Below are positions 12,515-28,872 of a DNA stretch of 64,000 nucleotides, piece by piece. The notes below the pieces were generated by a model. That model was not told the DNA's origin, did no database searches, and saw only the letters and a program-made list of their open reading frames with translations. Location of the stretch: positions 416,001 through 480,000 of the forward strand of contig JBMNLH010000001.1 of assembly GCA_050952625.1 (NCBI GenBank), read 5' to 3'. The DNA is from Bacillota bacterium (lineage in GTDB: Bacteria > Bacillota > Ch66 > Ch109). Position 1 is the stretch's first letter. Every line of letters begins with the position of its first letter. The translations under genes and the position numbers were made by a program.

Positions 12515-12736
12515 GTGTCCGTTAGCTATAAAAAGCTTTGGAAATTGTTGATAGACCGCGATATGAAGAAGAAAGATTTACAAGCTGCTGCGGGTATAAG
12601 TCCATCGTCAATTTCAAAGCTTTCTAAAAACGAATATGTCAGTATGGACGTTCTTGTAAAGGTTTGTACGGCGCTTGGCGTTGATTTTAAAGATATCATG
12701 GAATTAGTGCCGAATATGGTTGAAGAAAGGGAGTAG
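12515..12736 (+). CDS. Cro/C1-type HTH regulator
   Basis: VSYKKLWKLLIDRDMKKKDL...DIMEL; GAGGTG SD. Confidence 0.85.
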   Translation: MSVSYKKLWKLLIDRDMKKKDLQAAAGISPSSISKLSKNEYVSMDVLVKVCTALGVDFKDIMELVPNMVEERE

Positions 12737-12740
12737 AGTT

Positions 12741-14309
12741 ATGGAAAACAACAGAAAAGAACAGGAACGGGCGGAATTACACCGCACGATATGGAATATG
12801 GCAAATGATCTAAGAGGCAGTGTAGATGGATGGGATTTTAAGCAATATGTTCTAGGTATGCTGTTTTACCGCTACATATCGGAAAATATTACCGCCTATA
12901 TTAACGCCGGAGAATGGGAAGCTGGCAATAGGGAATTTGATTATGTCAAGCTATCCGACGAAGAAGCAGGACAGGCACGAGAGGATTTAGTTAAGACAAA
13001 AGGCTTCTTTATTTTACCCAGCGAGCTTTTTGAAAATGTCCGAGCTCGTGCAAAGGACGATGAAAACTTAAATGAAACATTAGAGCAGGTTTTCAGTAAT
13101 ATAGAAGCATCTGCGCAAGGAACAGAGAGTGAAGATAATTTCAAAGGTCTGTTTGACGATCTCGATGTTAACAGTAATAAGCTAGGAAACACTGTAGTAA
13201 AGCGTAATGAAAAGCTGGTTAAGCTATTGAATTCTGTCGGAGAAATGAAGCTGGGAGATTACAAAGACAATAACATAGATGCATTTGGTGATGCTTATGA
13301 ATTCTTAATGGGTATGTATGCTTCCAATGCCGGAAAAAGTGGTGGTGAATACTATACGCCACAGGAGGTTTCTGAACTCCTTACCCACCTAACATTAGTA
13401 GGAAAAACTGAAGTCAATAAGGTATATGACCCCGCTTGTGGTTCTGGCTCTTTACTGCTAAAATTTGCAAAAATCTTAGGAAAAGAAAATGTACGTCTAG
13501 GTTTCTTCGGTCAAGAAATCAACATTACAACCTACAACCTGTGCCGAATCAATATGTTCCTGCACGACATTGATTATGACAAATTTGATATTGCCCTTGG
13601 AGACACGCTAACAGATCCGCAACATTGGGATGATGAGCCTTTTGAAGCCATTGTATCAAATCCACCTTACTCTATTAAATGGAAGGGGGCCAGCGATCCG
13701 ATTTTGATTAACGATCCCCGTTTTTCTCCAGCTGGGGTACTGGCTCCTAAATCTAAGGCAGACCTTGCTTTTATTATGCATAGTCTTTCTTGGCTTGCGA
13801 CAAACGGAACAGCGGCTATCGTTTGTTTCCCCGGCGTAATGTACCGTGGCGGTGCTGAAAAGAAAATCAGGCAGTACCTGATTGACAATAACTATATCGA
13901 CTGTATCATTCAGTTGCCGGATAACCTGTTTTATGGCACCAGCATTGCTACCTGCATTATGGTGCTGAAGAAGTCCAAATCAGAAAATAGCACCTTATTT
14001 ATCGATGCATCAAAGGAATTTGTCAAAGTTACGAATAACAACAAACTTACACAAGAAAATATTGAGACCGTTCTTAACGCATTCAAAGATAGAAAAGATA
14101 TTGAGCACTTTGCCAGGCTTGTGCCAAACAGTGAAATTACTGAAGAGGATTACAACCTTTCTGTTTCTACCTATGTGGAACAGGAGGATACCAGAGAAAA
14201 GATTGATATTGTTGCCCTTAATGCTGAGATAGAAAAGATTGTGGCGAGAGAGCAGGTTTTGAGGGAAGAAATAGATAAGATTATAGCGGAAATTGAGGTG
14301 GGCAAATGA
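12741..14309 (+). CDS. hsdM: Type I R-M methyltransferase subunit
   Basis: YDPACGSGSLL (motif I), NPPY (motif IV), GEYYTP. Confidence 0.95.
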   Translation: MENNRKEQERAELHRTIWNMANDLRGSVDGWDFKQYVLGMLFYRYISENITAYINAGEWEAGNREFDYVKLSDEEAGQAREDLVKTKGFFILPSELFENVRARAKDDENLNETLEQVFSNIEASAQGTESEDNFKGLFDDLDVNSNKLGNTVVKRNEKLVKLLNSVGEMKLGDYKDNNIDAFGDAYEFLMGMYASNAGKSGGEYYTPQEVSELLTHLTLVGKTEVNKVYDPACGSGSLLLKFAKILGKENVRLGFFGQEINITTYNLCRINMFLHDIDYDKFDIALGDTLTDPQHWDDEPFEAIVSNPPYSIKWKGASDPILINDPRFSPAGVLAPKSKADLAFIMHSLSWLATNGTAAIVCFPGVMYRGGAEKKIRQYLIDNNYIDCIIQLPDNLFYGTSIATCIMVLKKSKSENSTLFIDASKEFVKVTNNNKLTQENIETVLNAFKDRKDIEHFARLVPNSEITEEDYNLSVSTYVEQEDTREKIDIVALNAEIEKIVAREQVLREEIDKIIAEIEVGK

Positions 14310-15322
14310 GTAAAGAACTTCAATTTTTAATATACAACACTCCTGAAGAAAATGTATCGGTTAATGCGGTTATTAAAGACGAATCCATTTGGCTAACCCA
14401 AAAAGCAATGGCAGAATTGTTTGATTGTACAACAGACAATATATCTTTACACCTAAAAAATATATACGCAGATGGTGAGCTTAATGAAAGTTCAACTACC
14501 GAGGAATTCTCGGTAGTTCAACAGGAAGGCAAAAGAAGAGTGAAAAGAAAAACAAAGTTCTATAATCTTGATGTCATTATTTCAGTTGGTTATCGTGTTA
14601 ATTCACGCAAAGCAACACGTTTTAGAATTTGGGCAACTGGTGTATTAAAAGAGTATATGATAAAAGGCTTTGCTATGGATGATGAAAGATTGAAGCAGGG
14701 TAAAACTGCTTTTGGCAAAGACTATTTTCGTGAACTTCTCGAACGTGTTCGCTCAATCAGGGCGAGCGAAAGGCGCATTTGGCAGCAAATCACCGATATA
14801 TTTGCTGAGTGCAGTATAGATTATGACAAGGATGCACAGGTCACACGTGATTTTTATGCCATGGTGCAAAATAAATTTCATTATGCTATCACTGGGCAAA
14901 CAGCGGCAGAGATTATCTATTCAAAATCCGATCGCAATAAAGAAAATATGGGTCTTACAACATGGAAAAATGCACCGGACGGGCGAATATTAAAATCCGA
15001 TGTTACAGTTGCAAAAAACTATCTTGAGGAAAAACAAATAAAGCAATTGGAAAGGACGATTTCCGGTTATTTTGATTATATAGAAGATTTGATTGAACGG
15101 GGAAATGTCTTCACGATGGAAGAGTTTTCCGAAAGCATTAACGAGTTTCTCTCCTTCAGAAAATATAAGATTTTAAAAGATAAGGGAAGCATTTCAAAAA
15201 AACAGGCTGATGCAAAGGCAGAAGAAGAATATACTCACTTTAATAAGACACAAAAAATTATTTCTGATTTTGACCGCCAGGTAAAAAAGCTGATAGCTAA
15301 AGGTGGTGATGGCAATGAGTAG
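14306..15322 (+). CDS. RhuM-family (virulence RhuM) DNA-binding protein
   Basis: WLTQKAMAELF, YNLDVIISVGYRVNS..ATRFRIWA, IRASERR, KNYL. Confidence 0.9.
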   Translation: MSKELQFLIYNTPEENVSVNAVIKDESIWLTQKAMAELFDCTTDNISLHLKNIYADGELNESSTTEEFSVVQQEGKRRVKRKTKFYNLDVIISVGYRVNSRKATRFRIWATGVLKEYMIKGFAMDDERLKQGKTAFGKDYFRELLERVRSIRASERRIWQQITDIFAECSIDYDKDAQVTRDFYAMVQNKFHYAITGQTAAEIIYSKSDRNKENMGLTTWKNAPDGRILKSDVTVAKNYLEEKQIKQLERTISGYFDYIEDLIERGNVFTMEEFSESINEFLSFRKYKILKDKGSISKKQADAKAEEEYTHFNKTQKIISDFDRQVKKLIAKGGDGNE

Positions 15323-16468
15323 ATTAAATCAGTTGATTGCTGAGCTTTGTCCTGATGGGGTGAAATATGCAAAGTTAAGCGAAATTTCGCCACCAAAAAG
15401 GGGGGTGAGAGTAGTAAAAAGCCAACTCATGTCAGAGGGCGAATACCCTGTATATCAAAACAGTATGACGCCGTTGGGATATTATAAGAAAAGCAATTGC
15501 TCCGCATACACGGTTTTCATTATCAGTGCAGGTGCGGCAGGCGAAGTTGATTACAGCACAAGGGATTTTTGGGCAGCAGACGATTGCTTCTACTTTATAT
15601 GCCCTGAGCAATTGCTTAGCCGATTTCTTTACTATGCGTTAATGTGTCAGCGGGAGTATTTGATTTCTAGAGTTCGTAGGCAAGTGTTCCGCGATTAGCA
15701 CGGTCGGTTATTGAGAACGTAAAAATTCCCGTTCCCCCTCTAGCTGTTCAGCAGGAAATTGTCCGTATTCTGGACAATTTCACAGAGCTTACAGCAGAGC
15801 TTACAGCAGAGCTTACAGCAGAGCTTACAGCAAGAAGAAAGCAGTATGAGTATTATAGGTATTTACTGCTTACGTTTGGTAATAACCCCGATATCAAGTG
15901 GATGACATTGGGGGAAATTGGACCTGTTTGTATGTGTAAGCGTATTATGAAAGCAGAAACAAGTCCAGTTGGTGATGTTCCATTCTTTAAAATTGGGACA
16001 TTTGGAAAAGAACCAGATGCTTTTATTTCACAGGAAAAATATGATGAATACCGAAAAGCATTTTCTTTCCCTAAAAAAGGCGATATTCTTATATCTGCTG
16101 CTGGAACAATCGGAAGAACAGTAATTTATGATGGAAAACCAGCTTATTACCAAGATTCTAATATTGTGTGGATTGATAATGATGAGAGTAAAGTGTTAAA
16201 TAAATATCTATATTATTGCTATGCGATGAAGCCTTGGTCAATATCTACTGGGGGAACTATTGCAAGGCTATATAATGACAATATTTCAAAGGCTAAAATT
16301 CCTGTCCCACCCTTAGAAGAACAAGAGCGCATTGTCGCCATCCTAGACCACTTTGACGCTCTCTGTAACGACTTAACCAGCGGCATTCCTGCTGAAATTG
16401 AAGCACGGCAAAAGCAATATGAATATTACAGGGATAAACTGTTATCTTTCAAGGAGGTGACGGCATGA
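15315..16468 (+). pseudogene. hsdS: Type IC specificity subunit, frameshifted near 15680
   Basis: Two TRDs, IPVPPL..Q..IV conserved regions, TAEL repeats; adding one base at GTTCGTAGG^CAAGT restores VRRASVPRL. Confidence 0.85.
15782..15832 (+). repeat. 12-bp tandem repeat ACAGCAGAGCTT x3 plus partials (TAEL spacer)
   Basis: ACAGAGCTT(ACAGCAGAGCTT)3ACAGCA. Confidence 0.9.
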
Positions 16469-19400
16469 GTATATACAACATCGTTGCTAGTACTGACGAA
16501 GCAACGGTTGTTGCTGAATATGCAGCTGAATATAATGTCCGTCCTGAAAAGTATCAGAGTGAGGCAGAACTTGAGCGGGAGTTTATTAGGCAACTGACTT
16601 CCCAAGGATATGAATATATTTCAGTGCACAATGAAGCTGCATTGATAGAAAATCTCCGAAAGCAACTTGAACTGCTTAATGACTTCACCTTTACTGATAG
16701 TGAATGGGATAGATTCTTCACAGAATGTATTGCCAATACCAACGAGGGAATTGTTGAAAAGACCAGAAAAATTCAGGATGACCATATCCAGATTCTGAAA
16801 CGCGAAGATGGAACAACAAAGAATATATACCTTTTGGATAAGAAGAATGTCCATAACAATCGCTTGCAGGTTATTAATCAATACGAAGAAGCAGGCGGCA
16901 AGCATGAAACCCGATATGATGTGACAATCCTTGCAAATGGGCTTCCCCTTGTCCATGTGGAGTTAAAGCGGCGTGGTGTTGCTATCCGTGAAGCCTTCAA
17001 TCAGATAAAAAGATACCAGCGTGACAGCTTTTGGGCGTCTTCTGGTCTATTTGAGTATGTACAAATATTCGTAATCTCAAATGGCACCCACACAAAGTAT
17101 TATAGCAACACCACAAGAAATGCTCATATCAAGGAGCAAAGCAGCAGTGAACGTCGAAGAAGTAAAAAAACAAGCAACAGCTTTGAGTTTACCAGCTTTT
17201 GGGCAGATGCAAACAACAAAATCATTCCTGACCTTGTGGACTTTACTAAAACATTTTTTGCCAGGCATACCCTCTTAAATATTCTAACAAAATATTGTAT
17301 TTTTACATCTGAAGATCTGCTCCTTGTAATGCGTCCTTATCAAATCGCTGCTGCGGAACGTATCTTATCACGTATTGTAGTATCAACCAACTACAAGAAG
17401 ATGGGCACAACTGCAGCCGGAGGATATATCTGGCATACAACAGGCTCTGGTAAGACATTGACCAGTTTTAAGACAGCCCAATTAGCTTCTGCCTTGCCTT
17501 ACATAGATAAGGTACTGTTCGTTGTTGACCGTAAAGACTTAGACTCTGGATTATCAGACCATGAAGGAATATGATCGTTTTGAAAAGGGAGCTGCTAATG
17601 GTAATACGTCCACAAGAGTTCTTCAAAGACAATTGGAAGACAGGGACGAAAAAGGAAATCCTCATGAATACAAAATCATTGTAACCACTATTCAGAAGTT
17701 GGATATATTTATCCGTAAAAACAAACAGCATGATATTTATAAGAAACACGTGGTGCTGATTTTCGATGAGTGTCACCGTTCCCAATTTGGAGAAATGCAT
17801 CAAGCCATTACCAAGAGTTTTAAAAACTACCATATCTTCGGCTTTACGGGAACTCCGATTTTTGCCGCCAATGCCAGTTCCAGCGGCAACCCACTGCTTC
17901 GTACAACCGAGCAGGCTTTTGGAGAAAGGCTGCATACTTATACCATTGTAGATGCCATCAATGATGGGAATGTTCTGCCTTTTAGAATAGATTTCATCAA
18001 TACGATTAAAATGACGGACAATATTAATGATAAAAAGGTTCGTAGCATAGACCGAGAAAAAGCCCTAGCTGACCCTCAGCGAATCAGTGAAATTGTTTCT
18101 TACGTTCTTGAACATTTTGATCAGAAGACGAAGCGTAATAGTTATTACACCTTCTCTGCGAAATGGGAAGAAGCAGATAAGCACAACCCTAAAAAGATGA
18201 TGGAAAAGCGTGAAACAAGGCGAGTTGCCGGTTTCAACTCCATATTTGCTGCTGCCTCCATCCCAATGGCAATCAGATACTATAATGAGTTTAAGAAGCA
18301 GATAGCGGAAAAGAACCGTAACCTTACCATTGCAACTATTTTCAGTTTTAGTGCAAATGAGGAGGAGCCAGATGGACTGTTGCCTGAAGAGGATTTTAAT
18401 ATGGAAAACCTTGACCAAAGCTCCAGGGATTTTCTTGAGGCGGCTATCCGAGATTACAATTCCACATTTAGCACAAATTACGATACTTCCTCGGACAAGT
18501 TCCAGAATTATTATAAAGACCTCTCTCTTCGTGTAAAGAATCGGGAGATTGATATATTGATTGTTGTCAATATGTTCCTTACAGGCTTTGATGCAACAAC
18601 CCTGAATACACTATGGGTAGACAAAAATCTGCGGCAGCATGGACTGATTCAGGCTTTTTCAAGAACTAACCGCATCTTAAACAGCGTTAAGACCTATGGT
18701 AATATCGTTTGTTTCCGAGATTTGAAAGAAGAGACAGACAAAGCTATTGCGCTATTCGGTAATAAGGATGCTGGCGGTATTGTACTGCTAAAAACATACG
18801 AAGAATATTATAAGGGATATGATGAAAAAGGTGAACACAAGCCGGGCTATGCTGAACTGATTGCAACCCTTACAACACAGTATCCCCTGGGACAACCTAT
18901 TCTTGGAGAAGAAGCAGAAAAAGACTTTATCCGGTTATATGGAGCAATACTTCGACTCAGAAATATTCTTACTTCTTTCGATGACTTTGAAGGAAATGAG
19001 ATTTTATCTGAAAGGGATTTTCAGGACTATCAGAGCATTTATATTGACCTATATCAGAAGTTCCGCCCAAAGGACGACAGAGACAAAGAAACTATCAATG
19101 ATGACATAGTTTTTGAGATTGAACTGGTCAAACAGATAGAGGTAAATATTGACTATATCCTTATGCTTGTAGCTAAATATCAACAATCCAACTGCAAGGA
19201 TAAAACCATTCTTACGACCATTGATAAGGCTATCAATTCGAGTATTGAACTTCGAAGCAAGAAAGAGCTTATCGAGCGTTTTATAGAGCAAGTCAATGTA
19301 TCGACCAAAGTGGATGAGGATTGGCGTAAATTCCTCCATGAGCGTAAGGAAGCGGATATTACAGCAATTATAGAAGAAGAAAAATTAAAGCCTGAAGAAA

Positions 19401-19573
19401 CCCGCCGTTTCATCGACAATGCTTTCCGAGACGGAATGCTTAAAACGACCGGTACAGCTATTGATAAAATCATGCCACCTGTATCCCGCTTTGGCGGAGG
19501 CAGAGCTGCGAAAAAGCAAGGAATTATTGAAAAACTGATGTTATTCTTTGAGAAGTATTTAGGGTTGGTGTAG
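16465..19573 (+). pseudogene. hsdR: Type I restriction endonuclease subunit (EcoR124-like), split by frameshift near 17545
   Basis: D..VELK nuclease motif, HTTGSGKT, DECHR, FTGTP, MFLTGFD, QAFSRTNR; 7-nt insertion in RKDLDYQTM. Confidence 0.9.
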
Positions 19574-23027: not shown

Positions 23028-24715
<1,688 letters not shown>

Positions 24716-24904: not shown

Positions 24905-25986
24905 AAGCCAAGGCTTCTAACCAAAGAAGCCGCGGTAAAAAGACTTCCCATAAATTTGGCCAAACCCAAAAGAACCAGGCCAAACCAGATGGAAGTCAAA
25001 CTCGACTAACTAAGCGCAAACCGAAAGCTAGTCGAAACTGAACCCTGAAAACTGCACAGCGAATATAAAAAAAGTTCTGTCAAGCGCAAGCCAAAGGATA
25101 AACCGAAACAAACCTTAAGGTAGAAAGACTAAGGTCAAGCTACTAAGGGCGTACGGAGGATGCCTAGGCGCTAAGAGACGAAGAAGGACGCGGTAAGCTG
25201 CGAAAAGCCTCGGGGAGCCGCAAGCAGGCCTTGATCCGGGGATCTCCGAATGGGGCAACCCAACTGGAGTAATGTCCAGTTACGGCTAACTGAATCCATA
25301 GGTTAGTCGAGACAACCAGGGGAACTGAAACATCTTAGTACCCTGAGGAAAAGAAAACAACAGTGATTCCCCAAGTAGCGGCGAGCGAACCGGGAAGAGC
25401 CCAAACCTCAAGAGTGTCAAAGCCTGCCGGCGTTGCTTTTGAGGGGTAGCGGGACCATCCTGGGCAGCGGCAGCAGCCCAAAGGAGTAAGAAACCATAAT
25501 TCTAGGTGAAGCGGACTGGAAAGCCCCGCCACAGAGAGTAACAGCCTCGTAACCGAAAGGATTATGGCTCCTGGATGGGATCCCAAGTACTGCGGGACAC
25601 GTGGAACCCCGTGGGAATCAGGGAGGACCACCTCCTAAGGCTAAATACTCCTTAGCGACCGATAGTGAACCAGTACCGTGAGGGAAAGGTGAAAAGCACC
25701 CCGGGAGGGGAGTGAAAAAGAACCTGAAACCGTATGCCTACAACCAGTCGGAGCTTTTTCGAAAGAAAGAGTGACGGCGTACTTTTTGTAGAACGGACCG
25801 GCGAGTTACAGTAACTAGCAAGGTTAAGGAAACGGAGCCGAAGCGAAAGCAAGTCTTAAGAGGGCGCAAGTTAGTTGCTGTAGACCCGAAACCGGGTGAT
25901 CTACCCATGACCAGAGTGAAGCGATGGTAAGACATCGTGGAGGCTCGAACCAACCGTTGTTGAAACAGCGGTGGATGAGTTGTGGG

Positions 25987-26028
<42 letters not shown>

Positions 26029-26292
26029 CCCGAAATAGCTTTAGGGCTAGCCTCAAGGCATAATTGATGGGGGTAGAGCACTGAATAGGCTAGGGGCCTT
26101 ACCCGGTTACCGAACCTTCTCAAACTCCGAATACCATCAATCGGACCTTGGGAGTCAGACTGCGAGTGATAAGATCCGTAGTCGAGAGGGAAACAGCCCA
26201 GACCGTCGATTAAGGTCCCCAAGTGTGGACTAAGTGGAAAAGGATGTGGGGTTGCCCAGACAACCAGGATGTTGGCTTAGAAGCAGCCATCA

Positions 26293-26328
<36 letters not shown>

Positions 26329-26375
26329 CCTGCGCCGAAAATTCCCGGGGCTCAAGTCCGCCACCGAAATCACGG

Positions 26376-26582
26376 ATTTTGGTGGTTGGCGGTTAGTGGT
26401 TAGTGGTTGGGAGGAAAGGAAATGGCTGGATATCGGACATTGGAAGTGTATCAAAAGGCATATAAACTGTCTTTAGAAATACACCGTGTCACCCAAACAT
26501 TTCCTGAATTTGAAAGGTATGAATTAGGAAGCATGGTCAAACAAATCCCAACGACCAATTACTAACGACCAACCACCAAAAT
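26376..26582 (+). other. 23S helix-45 intervening sequence
   Basis: Lies between CACCGAAATCACGG and GGTAGGGGAGCGTTC; arms ATTTTGGTGGTTGG... / ...CCAACCACCAAAAT. Confidence 0.9.
26422..26565 (+). pseudogene. Truncated four-helix-bundle 23S rRNA IVS protein (PF05635/TIGR02436-like), 47 aa
   Basis: SD GGAGGAAAGGA; MAGYRTLEVYQKAYKLSLEIHRVTQTFPEFERYELGSMVKQIPTTNY matches the family N-terminal pattern Y.DL.V.QKA..L...IY..T..FP..E.Y.L.S. Confidence 0.8.
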
Positions 26583-27044
26583 GGTAGGGGAGCGTTCCCA
26601 CAGCGTGGAAGTCATCCTGGAAGGGATGGTGGAGCGGTGGGAAGAGATAATGCCGGTATGAGTAAGCGAAAAGGCAGGTGAGAATCCTGCCCGCCGAAAG
26701 CCTAAGGTTTCCTGGGGAAGGCTCGTCCGCCCAGGGTAAGTCGGGACCTAAGCTGAGGCCGAAAGGCGTAGGCGATGGACAACCGGTGGAAATTCCGGTA
26801 CCACCCCAAGCCGCTCGAGCGAAGGGGGGACGCAGGAGGGTAGGCGAAGCGTACCGTTGGTCGAGTACGCGCAAGCTGGTAGGGGGTAAGATAGGCAAAT
26901 CCGTCTTACGTGAACCCTGAGAGGTGACGCCGAGGGAAAACTAAGTACCGAAGTCGCTGAACCCAAACTGCCAAGAAAAGCCTCTAGCAAGGCAAAAGGG
27001 TGCCCGTACCGCAAACCGACACAGGTAGGCGAGGAGAGAATCCT

Positions 27045-27076
<32 letters not shown>

Positions 27077-27272
27077 CGGCAAAATGACCCCGTAACTTCG
27101 GGAGAAGGGGTACCCCGTGTAGCGTGACTATGTGCACATATAGAAGCGTGAGGGGGTCGCAGTGAAGAGGCCCAGGCGACTGTTTACCAAAAACACAGGT
27201 CCCTGCCAAAGCGAAAGCTGAAGTATAGGGGCTGACGCCTGCCCGGTGCTGGAAGGTTAAGGGGAGGGGTTA

Positions 27273-27579
27273 TCCAGCACTCAACCTTGTATATCAATAG
27301 AGGAAAATAAATGCATTACGTTTATGTGCTTAAGAGTGGAGATAAGCTCTATATAGGAAGAACAAGCGACCTAAAAACCAGGATAAAGTCACATAACGAA
27401 GGTATAAACCGCTCAACAAAAGGGCATCAGTGGGAACTGATATATTATGAAGCATATAAATCCCTGAAAGATGCCATAAAGAGAGAAAATCAGCTAAAAA
27501 AACATGGCAATGCCAAGCGATGGCTGAAAGAGCGGATTATACACAGCCTCAAAGGTGATATATAGGGTTGAGTGCTGGA
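27273..27579 (+). other. 23S helix-68 intervening sequence (24-bp terminal stem)
   Basis: TCCAGCACTCAACCTTGTATATCA (27273-27296) pairs with TGATATATAGGGTTGAGTGCTGGA (27556-27579), replacing the normal short apical hairpin. Confidence 0.9.
27311..27565 (+). CDS. GIY-YIG nuclease (stand-alone catalytic domain, UPF0213/SLX1-like) encoded within the 23S IVS
   Basis: YVYVL, LYIGRT, RIKSH, YYEAY, AIKRENQLK; SD AGAGGA; AT-rich relative to rRNA. Confidence 0.9.
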   Translation: MHYVYVLKSGDKLYIGRTSDLKTRIKSHNEGINRSTKGHQWELIYYEAYKSLKDAIKRENQLKKHGNAKRWLKERIIHSLKGDI

Positions 27580-27601
27580 GAAGCTCTGAACCGAAGCCCC
27601 A

Positions 27602-27686
<85 letters not shown>

Positions 27687-27933
27687 TCTGGGCACTGTCT
27701 CAACGAGGGGCTCGGTGAAATTGTACTACCGGTAAAGATGCCGGTTACCTGCGACAGGACAGAAAGACCCCGTGGAGCTTTACTGCAACCTGATATTGGA
27801 TTTTGGTAGGCAATGTACAGGATAGGTGGGAGGCAGAGAAGCAAGTCCGCCAGGATTTGTGGAGCCAACGGTGGGATACCACTCTTTGTGTACTGAAGTT
27901 CTAACTCGGCCCTGTAAACCAGGGTGAGGACAT

Positions 27934-27969
<36 letters not shown>

Positions 27970-28125
27970 CAAAGCGTAACGGAGGCGCCCAAAGGTTCCC
28001 TCAGAATGGTTGGAAATCATTCGGAGAGTGTAAAGGCAGAAGGGAGCTTGACTGCGAGAGAGACATCTCGAGCAGGGACGAAAGTCGGGCTTAGTGATCC
28101 GGTGGTTCCGAGTGGAAGGGCCATC

Positions 28126-28162
<37 letters not shown>

Positions 28163-28191
28163 TATCTCGCCCAAGAGTTCATATCGACGGC

Positions 28192-28275
<84 letters not shown>

Positions 28276-28280
28276 TACGT

Positions 28281-28323
<43 letters not shown>

Positions 28324-28348
28324 TCGCAGGCGCAGGAAACTTGAGAGG

Positions 28349-28386
<38 letters not shown>

Positions 28387-28438
28387 GCTGGTGTATCAGT
28401 TGTTCCGCCAGGGGCAACGCTGAGTAGCTATGTTCGGG

Positions 28439-28470
<32 letters not shown>

Positions 28471-28749
28471 ACCGGCCTCAAGATGAGGTTTCCCATGGAG
28501 TCAATCCAGTAAGACCCCAGCAAGACTAGCTGGTAGATAGGCCAGGAGTGTAAGAACAGCAATGTTTTCAGCTGACTGGTACTAATCGGTCGAGGGCTTG
28601 ACCTAATTTTCTAACAGTAAGGCGTGAGGTTGACGCTAAGCTATTCCCTGAAGTCTTGGGAGCTAAGGATTGACAGACTCAAAATATTCGCTGTGAAGTT
28701 TTGAAGGTTCAATCTAAAATCCAATATCTAAAATCTAAGAATTAGATTT

Positions 28750-28865
28750 TCTGGTGACGATAGCGGAGGGGAAACACCCGTTCCCATCCCGAACACGGCA
28801 GTTAAGCCCTCCAGCGCCGATGGTACTTGGGTGGAGACGCCCTGGGAGAGTAGGTCGTTGCCAGG
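28750..28865 (+). rRNA. rrf: 5S rRNA
   Basis: CCCATCCCGAACAC, GCCGATGGTACT, GAGAGTAGGTCGTTGCCAGG. Confidence 0.97.
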
Positions 28866-28872
28866 ATATTTT

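Follow-up and report, generated by a model that had tools for sequence, protein, structure and literature searches.

Why does a 23S rRNA gene carry, within the tip of one of its helices, an intact open reading frame for a GIY-YIG protein, and how can such a gene reside there without an intron? This question arose from a stretch of 64,000 nucleotides (hereafter the window) of the genome of an anaerobic-digester Bacillota bacterium (assembly GCA_050952625.1, contig JBMNLH010000001.1, positions 416,001 to 480,000). A first-pass annotation, made from the sequence alone, had described a 307-nt hairpin-bounded insert in helix 68 (H68) with a Shine-Dalgarno site and an 84-aa GIY-YIG ORF. It had interpreted the insert as a selfish nuclease cassette that is rendered harmless by host RNA processing, is expressed from the excised fragment and may spread among rrn copies by gene conversion. 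Our analysis confirmed the observation. The interpretation was supported only in part.

The insert in helix 68 and its reading frame

The 23S rRNA gene of the window was delimited by a search with the Rfam models. A local alignment revealed 303 extra nucleotides in the 4-nt apical loop of the helix directly preceding the GGCCGUAACUAUAACGGUCC hairpin. This hairpin is H69 and, thus, the interrupted helix is H68. The ends of the insert form a stem of 24 consecutive base pairs, two of which are G-U pairs. Folding of the insert gave a minimum free energy of -115.6 kcal/mol compared to -71.95 ± 4.87 kcal/mol for 100 shuffled sequences (z -8.96), and none of the shuffled sequences folded as well. The positions of all features are summarized in the table.

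Features of the rRNA operon and of the insert (window coordinates, all on the + strand)
Feature	Position	Size	Basis and remarks
16S rRNA gene of the same operon	23028-24709	1682 nt	Rfam; context only. Carries its own ORF-less hairpin insert at about 23099-23244 with different arms (comparison of the 16S copies of the genome, and a fold)
23S rRNA gene hosting the insert	25133-28605	3473 nt	Rfam RF02541 (bacterial LSU rRNA), 2876.8 bits, model positions 1-2925
Intervening sequence (hairpin cassette) replacing the apical loop of H68	27273-27579	307 nt	Local alignment to the 4-nt model loop
5' arm of the stem	27273-27296	24 nt	Sequence and fold; outer part CCAGCACTCAAC is the family-conserved arm motif
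Shine-Dalgarno-like AGAGGA	27299-27304	6 nt	Sequence; 6 nt upstream of the ATG at 27311
GIY-YIG ORF (UPF0213/SLX1-like, catalytic domain only)	27311-27565	84 aa	ORF list; Pfam PF01541
3' arm of the stem	27556-27579	24 nt	Sequence and fold; contains the TAG stop codon (27563-27565)
5S rRNA gene of the operon	28750-28866		Rfam RF00001; context only

The encoded protein matched the Pfam GIY-YIG family over residues 1-68 with an E-value of 4.5e-15 and 56.1 bits, above the cut-off of 22.6 bits. The YVY motif is located at residues 3-5 and the YIG motif at residues 14-16, which agrees with the usual spacing of about 10 residues. Thirteen residues were invariant in 41 of 41 aligned relatives, among them the residues of the GIY-YIG catalytic set Y5, Y14, G16, R24, H28 and E47. 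In a single-sequence search the best solved structure was the UPF0213 protein 1zg2 (E 5.6e-5). A profile search likewise returned 1zg2 (E 2.5e-13), followed by 1ywl (E 3.4e-8) and SLX1 (7wme, E 2.4e-4), whereas I-TevI (1mk0, E 9.4e-4) was a weaker match. Thus, the nearest solved relatives are UPF0213 proteins and SLX1, which is labelled in the PDB as a structure-specific endonuclease. This fits the suggestion of the first-pass annotation that the enzyme may be structure-specific, but only as a lead. A separate DNA-binding domain, as found in the I-TevI architecture, is absent. The median length in the family is 84 aa, and 136 of 144 members are between 75 and 95 aa long.

In order to search for an intron, positions 27265-27590 were compared with all Rfam families. 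No match was obtained even at E <= 10, and only 52 nt of the insert lie outside of the ORF. The contiguity of the locus was examined next. A separate metagenome contig of 2204 nt (locus L112 of the family described below) carries an ORF with 100% identity and flanks with 99.7-100% identity and spans both junctions. A contig of 383 nt from a DNA sequencing run (X1) also spans both junctions (27236-27618) with 0 differences. However, X1 may be the source sample and is therefore not independent.

Copies within the genome and relatives in other bacteria

The genome (G000; 2.9 Mb in 9 contigs, at least four rrn operons) contains four full 23S copies and one truncated copy, and these differ at the H68 site. 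Only the copy of the window holds the full cassette. An identical 81-nt ORF-less hairpin with the same arms is present in the copy on contig C7 and in the truncated copy (C1:1300156-1301590). The copy on contig C4 harbors a decayed remnant of 169 nt with 69% G+C which is collinear with the ORF (local score 53 compared to 38.9 ± 4.7; 2 of 500 shuffles scored as high). The fifth copy (C1:1274744-1278183) has the normal short tip, which reads GCGCAAGC, and differs at two paired positions next to the site. Within the genome the arm motif was found only at H68 of the rrn copies. An insert of another 23S copy encodes an IVP-type protein (PF05635, E 5.1e-23). The genome possesses an RNase III gene, and the ORF of the cassette is its only stand-alone GIY-YIG; the one other hit is a 634-aa frame. 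The large ORFs of the window gave only a type I restriction-modification system, an amylase-domain protein and a histidine kinase.

In 16 phylum-level relatives 43 of 43 23S copies were uninterrupted at the tip of H68. This count carries no information on the closest relatives, since 0 of the 6 same-family or same-order genomes had an assembled 23S at this region, and the only match in one genome (G039) ends exactly at the H68 tip because the contig ends there. A protein search of 80 relatives gave no close homologue (best 49% identity). A search of phages and plasmids returned one weak phage hit (37%) and no plasmid hit and, thus, suggests no vector.

Wider searches revealed 144 distinct family loci (numbered with the prefix L), many of them from Patescibacteria MAGs. 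The same nucleotide position in H68 is filled in at least seven other assemblies, including Acidobacteriota and Bacillota: L012 (Ca. Saccharicenans MAG, 61% amino acid identity), L014 (Desulfotomaculum copahuensis), L113 (80%), L114 (71%), L115, L119 and L126. Their 23S flanks are only 73-83% (5' side) and 82-91% (3' side) identical to those of the window. The closest named 23S piece among the loci is from Desulfofundulus (93.7% over 364 nt). Elements with the same arm sequence (CCNGCACTCAAC...GTTGAGTGCNGG) also enclose homologous ORFs near the 23S 3' end at H98 (L015, L116, L117, L120 and L134), at H25 (L013) and at another 23S site (L118). Consequently, the arms belong to the element and not to the host rRNA.

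The arms were then tested for covariation on 16 elements. Of 22 pairs, 14 change on both sides. Pairing was found in 95.9% of the cells compared to 81.2% in shuffles (0 of 500 as high) and 32-41% when the partner was slid. At isolated non-Watson-Crick positions of 103 stems a symmetric count gave 44 G-U and 12 A-C, although the register was taken from a stem finder that extends through G-U and related sequences are not independent. This excess points to a constraint at the RNA level on the sense strand. ORF-enclosing stems of at least 14 bp occurred in 102 of 145 loci, compared to 6 of 145 and 2 of 145 in two controls. A purine-rich GGAG/GGGA block is located at the Shine-Dalgarno position in 15 of the 16 aligned elements, while the row of L181 is gapped there. 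The ORF is under purifying selection with dN/dS values of 0.19 (window and L113), 0.06, 0.13 and 0.17 for unsaturated pairs.

Of the 144 loci, 70 lie in or beside stable-RNA genes (rRNA, RNase P RNA, tRNA leaders), all of them on the strand of the RNA. RNase P RNA contexts were recognized with an nhmmer scan, for which seeds containing the ORF had been trimmed, and with a scan for the P4 motif. The tRNA-leader copies are flanked by 11-13-nt direct repeats of the tRNA 5' end. No recognized stable RNA was found beside the other 74 loci, and 28 of these 74 were scanned with Rfam without a hit near the ORF. On a protein tree the contexts cluster, requiring 29 changes compared to 62.5 for shuffled labels. 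However, this tree is based on 86 columns and is poorly supported (14 of 132 branches starred).

Assembled RNA-library contigs from three studies lie wholly inside the insert (27308-27563, 27286-27503 and 27329-27503). These contigs are shallow (depth 3-10), could derive from DNA in the libraries or from precursor, and cannot show RNA ends. The flanks reached depths of thousands, but this sums many organisms and the difference is not taken as evidence of excision. No listed joint connects 27272 directly to 27580. Every joint carries other letters, which represent short tips of other alleles or organisms.

A probable mobile intervening sequence and its alternatives

We conclude that the 307 nt most likely represent a mobile, ORF-bearing intervening sequence (IVS), and assign to this reading a probability of roughly 0.65. 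It is a self-contained cassette of two conserved inverted-repeat arms, a ribosome-binding site and a minimal GIY-YIG gene. In this view it belongs to a widespread family which resides in sense orientation at helix tips of stable RNAs (23S, 16S, RNase P RNA) or in tRNA 5' leaders. The cassette would be transcribed with the rRNA precursor. Its arms extend H68 coaxially into a long perfect duplex, a structure under RNA-level constraint. By analogy with classical IVSs, host RNase III would cut this duplex, so that the cassette leaves the ribosome and the 23S rRNA stays in two pieces without religation. The released loop or the precursor would serve as mRNA for the nuclease. The nuclease would act on DNA, perhaps on hairpin or cruciform structures or on its own arms, and would thereby keep or spread the cassette between rrn copies and, rarely, to other genomes and other helix tips. 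Copies that lose the ORF would decay to short hairpins and finally to the empty tip, and all of these stages are seen in this one genome.

The anatomy of the cassette, its differences between the five 23S copies, its occurrence at other sites and in other phyla, the covariation of the arms and the purifying selection on the ORF rest on sequence comparison. In contrast, transcription, excision by RNase III, fragmentation of the 23S rRNA, translation, nuclease activity, gene conversion and the mechanism of transfer are inferred. Some observations argue against parts of this reading. The empty copy of the same genome has not been invaded, which argues against efficient homing or implies a resistant target. 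The lack of a DNA-binding domain leaves site specificity unexplained. ORF identity falls roughly in step with 23S flank identity among the H68 carriers and, therefore, old vertical descent with loss is not excluded for part of the pattern.

Among the alternatives, a non-selfish function survives best but appears unlikely. The protein might be a maturase-like factor for stable-RNA maturation or quality control, acting on RNA or on its own hairpin, encoded in the precursors it serves and inherited mostly vertically with frequent loss. The sense orientation in precursors of rRNA, RNase P RNA and tRNA, the purifying selection and the rough agreement of ORF and flank identity are compatible with this. 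Moreover, the outer arm sequence is conserved beyond what pairing requires, as would be a protein-binding site. However, only one of the five 23S copies keeps the ORF, two keep just the hairpin and one has no insert, so the host RNA does not need the protein. The relatives with 43 of 43 uninterrupted copies and the roughly half of the family loci without a stable RNA beside them also speak against it, and an RNA-cleaving GIY-YIG enzyme is not known to us.

Less likely still is a retained expansion segment with an ORF that is an unexpressed passenger. The G+C-rich remnant on C4 and the 81-nt hairpins do resemble stabilized helix extensions, and no RNA ends could be mapped from the contigs. Nevertheless, the low dN/dS values, the 13 invariant residues and the conserved Shine-Dalgarno block point to a protein that is used. 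In addition, H68 lies on the subunit-interface side, where an appendage of 300 nt is unlikely to be harmless, and comparable long perfect stems of classical IVSs are RNase III substrates. A spliced, unrecognized intron is very improbable. Nuclease ORFs in rRNA genes usually ride in introns (PMC11270868), but the absence of any Rfam match, the 52 nt of non-coding sequence and the lack of a direct joint among those listed argue against splicing, and all GIY-YIG ORFs in rRNA inserts of CPR bacteria were reported to lie in non-intron insertions (PMC11270868). An assembly artefact can practically be dismissed: although rRNA repeats are error-prone and one 23S copy is truncated, the independent contig L112 and the X1 contig span both junctions, homologous inserts occupy the same position in at least seven other assemblies and the arms are present in three further copies of the genome.

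Relation to known elements and meaning of the cassette

Classical bacterial 23S IVSs (Salmonella, Leptospira, Coxiella and others) are excised by RNase III, and some carry a 23S_rRNA_IVP ORF (IVSs are described in PMC11270868). The cassette shares with them the extra sequence at a helix tip, the long terminal stem, the sporadic presence among rrn copies and related organisms, the small ORF and the absence of an intron core. It differs in its site, which is H68 and not the classical H25 or H45, although a relative with the same arms occupies H25. Furthermore, it encodes a GIY-YIG protein instead of the four-helix IVP protein (PF05635), and its arm sequence is shared between different sites and phyla.

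The first-pass annotation was not aware of a described H68 IVS with a GIY-YIG ORF, and its claim of novelty was too strong. Non-intron rRNA insertions encoding GIY-YIG proteins, scattered over several sites, have been reported for CPR bacteria (Tsurumaki et al. 2024, PMC11270868, who credit Brown et al. 2015), and the cassette fits this description. The present host, with its 2.9-Mb genome and several rrn operons, is not CPR-like. The text of PMC11270868 that we consulted does not mention hairpin arms, their conservation across sites, ORF-less derivatives or the RNase P RNA and tRNA-leader contexts. Literature searches for an H68 IVS, for GIY-YIG proteins with IVS, RNase P RNA or CPR, for Pelotomaculum and for UPF0213, which did not cover subscription papers, found only PMC11270868 and PMC8172020 to be relevant. 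No insert at H68 was found in print, although the supplementary site tables of PMC11270868 may list an equivalent site.

With intron-encoded homing endonucleases of the I-TevI type the cassette shares the GIY-YIG domain and stages of gain, decay and loss. It may also share the repeated occupancy of one exact site in conserved genes of unrelated hosts, since the same site is filled in at least seven other assemblies, but an empty copy coexists with the cassette in this genome. It lacks the intron and the DNA-binding domain, and many unrelated sites are used. Stand-alone GIY-YIG (URI) domains of the UPF0213/SLX1 type (1zg2, 1ywl, 7wme, 6seh) are the best matches and, as single catalytic domains of about 85-110 aa, are similar in size. 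These proteins are ordinary chromosomal genes or subunits of a repair complex, and none is known to us to sit inside an RNA gene. Hairpin-associated small mobile elements (MITEs, REP with RAYT, IS200/IS605) offer an analogy only. They have terminal or subterminal inverted repeats, ORF-less derivatives and a cognate small nuclease gene, but belong to a different enzyme family. In contrast to them, the cassette is not dispersed through the genome and is strictly in sense orientation inside stable-RNA genes.

A more far-reaching reading is possible, though less likely than not. The insert may be one member of an undescribed class of mobile element, a hairpin cassette of about 300 nt with conserved C-rich inverted-repeat arms (CCNGCAC... 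/ ...GTGCNGG), a Shine-Dalgarno site and a minimal SLX1/UPF0213-like GIY-YIG nuclease. This class would colonize helix tips and 5' leaders of stable-RNA genes (23S, 16S, RNase P RNA, tRNA) across many phyla, depending on host RNA processing to be harmless and on host stable-RNA promoters to be expressed. It would move by a structure-directed DNA mechanism in which the nuclease recognizes hairpin or cruciform DNA or its own arms, and the direct repeats at the tRNA-leader copies would be the footprint of this mechanism.

In practice, such inserts break the detection and assembly of rRNA and RNase P RNA genes in metagenomes, and diverged CPR RNase P RNAs that escape the models have been noted (PMC8172020). 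ORF-bearing IVSs and GIY-YIG ORFs in CPR rRNA inserts are on record, but neither the unit of mobility nor its way of moving is known to have been stated. Here the unit can be defined as arms, Shine-Dalgarno site and ORF. It is shared between different rRNA helices and phyla and extends to RNase P RNA and tRNA leaders, while one genome holds the full, decayed, ORF-less and empty states. Thus, it becomes testable with simple substrates how a nuclease gene without an intron and without a DNA-binding domain persists inside essential RNA genes. If the nuclease proves structure-directed or hairpin-guided, it would represent a new route of mobility and a very small tool enzyme.

The insert in the 23S rRNA gene and the rRNA copies of the genome

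The window contains an rrn operon with 16S, 23S and 5S rRNA genes. A local Rfam alignment of positions 27130-27720 revealed that the 4-nt apical loop of the long helix preceding the GGCCGUAACUAUAACGGUCC hairpin is replaced by 303 nt. This hairpin corresponds to H69, which makes the interrupted helix H68. The two arms of the insert pair over 24 consecutive positions, two of which are G-U pairs. A Shine-Dalgarno-like AGAGGA and the start codon follow the 5' arm, and the TAG stop codon lies inside the 3' arm. The predicted fold is far more stable than those of shuffled sequences (-115.6 kcal/mol compared to -71.95 ± 4.87 kcal/mol; z -8.96; 0 of 100 shuffles as good). The ORF of 84 amino acids matched the Pfam family GIY-YIG with an E value of 4.5e-15, whereas no Rfam family, introns included, matched the insert at E ≤ 10. 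Both junctions are crossed by an independent metagenome contig (L112) and by a contig of the DNA run X1, which may, however, be the source sample. The observation of the first-pass annotation, an intact GIY-YIG nuclease gene in a hairpin-bounded insert at the tip of H68, was confirmed in every detail.

The assembly (G000; 2.9 Mb, 9 contigs) has four full 23S genes and one truncated gene, which differ at the H68 tip. The copy in the window carries the full cassette. The copy on contig C7 and the truncated copy on contig C1 carry an identical 81-nt hairpin which keeps the same arms, a 13-nt duplication and about the last 30 nt of the ORF region. The copy on contig C4 has a 169-nt insert with 69% G+C which keeps the 3' arm. 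This insert is collinear with blocks of the ORF, including a 13 of 13 match (local score 53 compared to 38.9 ± 4.7; 2 of 500 shuffles as high). Finally, a divergent full-length copy on contig C1, which is 94-95% identical to the others, shows the ordinary tip GCGCAAGC. So full, decayed, ORF-less and empty states coexist in one genome. The arm motif was found nowhere else in this genome. The ORF is its only stand-alone GIY-YIG, the one other hit being a 634-aa frame.

The truncated 23S gene covers only Rfam model positions 1309-2912 and lies about 22 kb from a full operon. It could be a real pseudogene or an assembly problem. The divergent copy carries a different insert in the H45 region, about 255 nt longer than in the window copy, which encodes a 23S_rRNA_IVP protein (PF05635, E 5.1e-23; profile positions 35-105 of 106). 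So one genome holds two kinds of ORF-bearing IVS. The 16S gene of the window (1682 nt) contains a long hairpin insert of about 118 extra nt near position 70, built of TTAGTGG-like repeats and present in three 16S copies. The divergent operon lacks this insert and instead has a hairpin insert of about 115 nt near the 16S 3' end with GTTAGAC-like repeats. Neither of them has an ORF or the GIY-YIG arm motif. Type I restriction-modification genes lie upstream of the operon, and their HsdR-like frame starts within the SWI2/SNF2 profile.

Coordinates of features in the window, elsewhere in its genome (G000) and in loci of relatives (L numbers)
Feature	Sequence	Coordinates
Type I restriction-modification genes	window	12720-19573
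HsdM-like gene	window	12720-14309
HsdR-like frame	window	17561-19573
16S rRNA gene	window	23028-24709
Hairpin insert in the 16S gene	window	23099-23244
23S rRNA gene	window	25133-28605
5' arm of the cassette	window	27273-27296
AGAGGA	window	27299-27304
ATG start codon of the ORF	window	27311
3' arm of the cassette	window	27556-27579
TAG stop codon of the ORF	window	27563-27565
5S rRNA gene	window	28750-28866
16S hairpin insert of the divergent operon	G000:C1	1274190-1274304
Divergent 23S copy with empty H68 tip	G000:C1	1274744-1278183
Truncated 23S copy with 81-nt hairpin	G000:C1	1300156-1301590
RNase P RNA gene with cassette	L032	3898-4550
Gap in the 23S match downstream of the cassette	L012	4310-5779
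ORF-less hairpin downstream of the ORF	L017	4260-4340
DUF3800-II RNA (RF02961)	L133	5234-5297
DUF3800-II RNA (RF02961)	L023	6234-6297

Related cassettes and their conserved arms

In order to find relatives of the protein a word-indexed protein search was performed. It returned 33 relatives, among them one with 99% identity and one with 80% identity which is named as a hypothetical protein of Pelotomaculum propionicicum. Pattern scans revealed 283 relatives in species-representative genomes and at least 413 in metagenomes, and the best 80 of each were kept as loci. BLAST with the rRNAs of the window detected rRNA beside the ORF in 27 of these 160 loci, always on the strand of the ORF. The same H68 position is filled in L012 (Ca. 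Saccharicenans MAG), L113, L114, L115, L119 and L126 and, judged by its short flanks, also in L014 (Desulfotomaculum copahuensis). The 23S flanks of the six loci with BLAST flanks, which do not include L014, are only 73-83% (5' part) and 82-91% (3' part) identical to those of the window. In L012 the BLAST match also has a gap of about 1.47 kb just downstream, between 23S positions 27623 and 27637 of the window in the H69-H71 region, which may be an intron. Other ORFs sit about 100 nt from the 23S 3' end, which was assigned to H98 by position (L015 Desulfofundulus, L116, L117, L120, L134), in H25 (L013 Tindallia MAG, L028 Deferribacter) and at three more 23S sites (L034, L036, L118). Five loci are in the 16S rRNA gene, namely L037, L052 and L157 near position 70 as well as L076 and L137. 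Among 80 relatives of the genome of the window only 18 had this 23S region assembled. In 16 of them all 43 copies run uninterrupted across the tip, and the other two end at contig ends.

The elements at H68, H98, H25 and one further site share the outer arm CCNGCACTCAAC...GTTGAGTGCNGG (14 loci by regular expression, the window and L114 by eye). In an alignment of 16 whole elements the 22-pair stem is paired in 95.9% of cells, compared to 81.2% in column shuffles (0 of 500 as high) and 32-41% when the partner is slid. Fourteen pairs change on both sides; position 3, for example, is A-U, G-C or C-G. Across the family, stems of at least 14 bp enclose the ORF in 102 of 145 loci, but in only 6 and 2 of 145 in the two controls. 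Other lineages have different but related C-rich arms such as CCCCCACAC... and GCCCCTCACC... At isolated non-Watson-Crick positions G-U outnumbers A-C 44 to 12, which is expected if the sense-strand RNA and not duplex DNA must pair, although the relatedness of the sequences means that this test overstates. In some free-standing loci (L017, L018, L022, L029, L125, L188, L191) an ORF-less hairpin with family-type arms (ACCCGCACACTTAA...TTAAGTGTGCGGGT) lies just downstream of the ORF instead of around it. In L027 and L030 the cassette appears to sit between TTGACA and TAAAAT-like hexamers, so that its removal would leave a promoter-like spacing, which may be coincidence. In two Patescibacteria loci (L133, L023) a DUF3800-II RNA lies about 2 kb downstream of free-standing family members and is probably unrelated.

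Unsaturated pairs of ORFs gave dN/dS values of 0.19 (window and L113), 0.06, 0.13 and 0.17. In 41 aligned relatives the residues Y5, Y14, G16, R24, H28, Y45, Y46, E47, A48, A55, R58, E59 and K63 are invariant. The nearest solved proteins are UPF0213 proteins (1zg2, profile E 2.5e-13; 1ywl), followed by SLX1, which is labelled a structure-specific endonuclease (E 2.4e-4), and by the I-TevI catalytic domain (E 9.4e-4). There is no second domain.

Occurrence in other stable-RNA genes and in RNA libraries

Rfam, ARAGORN, nhmmer and a motif scan showed the family in other stable-RNA genes. Homologous cassettes sit inside RNase P RNA genes (L032, L143, L189, L190, L051, L132, L170, L021 and others). 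In L032 a full-length match of 250.8 bits carries a 291-nt insertion with the ORF in a hairpin loop. In many other loci the ORF ends 4-25 nt upstream of GAGGAAAGUCC, that is upstream of P4, a position which we read as the P3 hairpin. Furthermore, 35 of 159 loci have a same-strand tRNA within 150 nt, and 33 of these place the ORF 0-60 nt upstream of the tRNA (L149, L039, L033, L172, L169, L084, L054, L079, L187, L138 and others). In 13 of 24 distinct tRNA-leader loci an exact repeat of at least 10 nt of the tRNA 5' end (usually nt 1-11, ending TAGC) lies upstream of the 5' arm, and 10 of these repeats start at tRNA nucleotide 1. The control gave 0 of 239. The repeat may be a target duplication or an alternative-pairing device.

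After removal of duplicates, 70 of 144 loci are in or beside a stable-RNA gene: 23 in rRNA, 17 at RNase P RNA, 29 in tRNA leaders and 1 next to an rrn operon. For the other 74 no such gene was recognised, although only 28 of them were scanned with Rfam. On a weakly supported tree of 135 proteins the contexts cluster, with 29 changes compared to 62.5 for shuffled labels. The H68, H98 and H25 elements fall in one group of 24, and the H68 label needs three changes.

An RNase III gene is present in the genome. Contigs of three metatranscriptome runs from three studies lie wholly inside the insert (27308-27563, 27286-27503 and 27329-27503; depth 3-10). No listed joint connects 27272 to 27580 without other letters between. 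This shows that the sequence is present in RNA libraries and gives no sign of splicing, but such contigs cannot show ends, level or excision.

Interpretation of the cassette

The best-supported reading is an ORF-bearing intervening sequence that is a member of a mobile hairpin-cassette family. The analysis itself demonstrated the anatomy of the cassette, the RNA-level constraint on its stem, selection on the protein, the sense orientation in stable-RNA genes, the reuse of one exact site in distant hosts, the same arms at different sites, and presence, absence and decay among the copies of one genome. In contrast, excision by RNase III without religation, translation from the precursor or the released piece, the nuclease activity and its action at the DNA level, and the way in which copies spread are inferences. 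The interpretation of the first-pass annotation, a selfish nuclease cassette relying on host RNA processing, is supported only in part. The persistence of an empty copy in the same genome and the absence of a DNA-binding domain argue against classical efficient homing. A maturase-like host function is less likely than the preferred reading, as are a retained expansion segment and, further down, an unknown intron. An assembly artefact is the least likely.

For CPR bacteria it was reported that rRNA insertions often encode LAGLIDADG or GIY-YIG proteins, that all GIY-YIG ORFs lie in insertions that are not introns, and that they are sparse, spread over several sites and seem outside the context of homing (PMC11270868, which credits an earlier study, its reference 2). 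Diverged CPR RNase P RNAs with extended helices were noted without mention of GIY-YIG (PMC8172020). Our literature searches, which did not extend to most subscription journals or to supplementary material, found no description of an H68 insert, of the conserved arms, of ORF-less derivatives or of the RNase P RNA and tRNA-leader contexts.

The feature is real, and its basic nature as a non-intron rRNA insert with a GIY-YIG ORF has precedent. New here are the site, the non-CPR host, the definition of the mobile unit, the series of states within one genome and the wider niche of the family. That the family is a distinct, undescribed class of mobile element is possible, but we propose this only tentatively. 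The affinity to SLX1 and UPF0213 and the strict association with hairpins make a structure-directed activity of the nuclease the most attractive lead.
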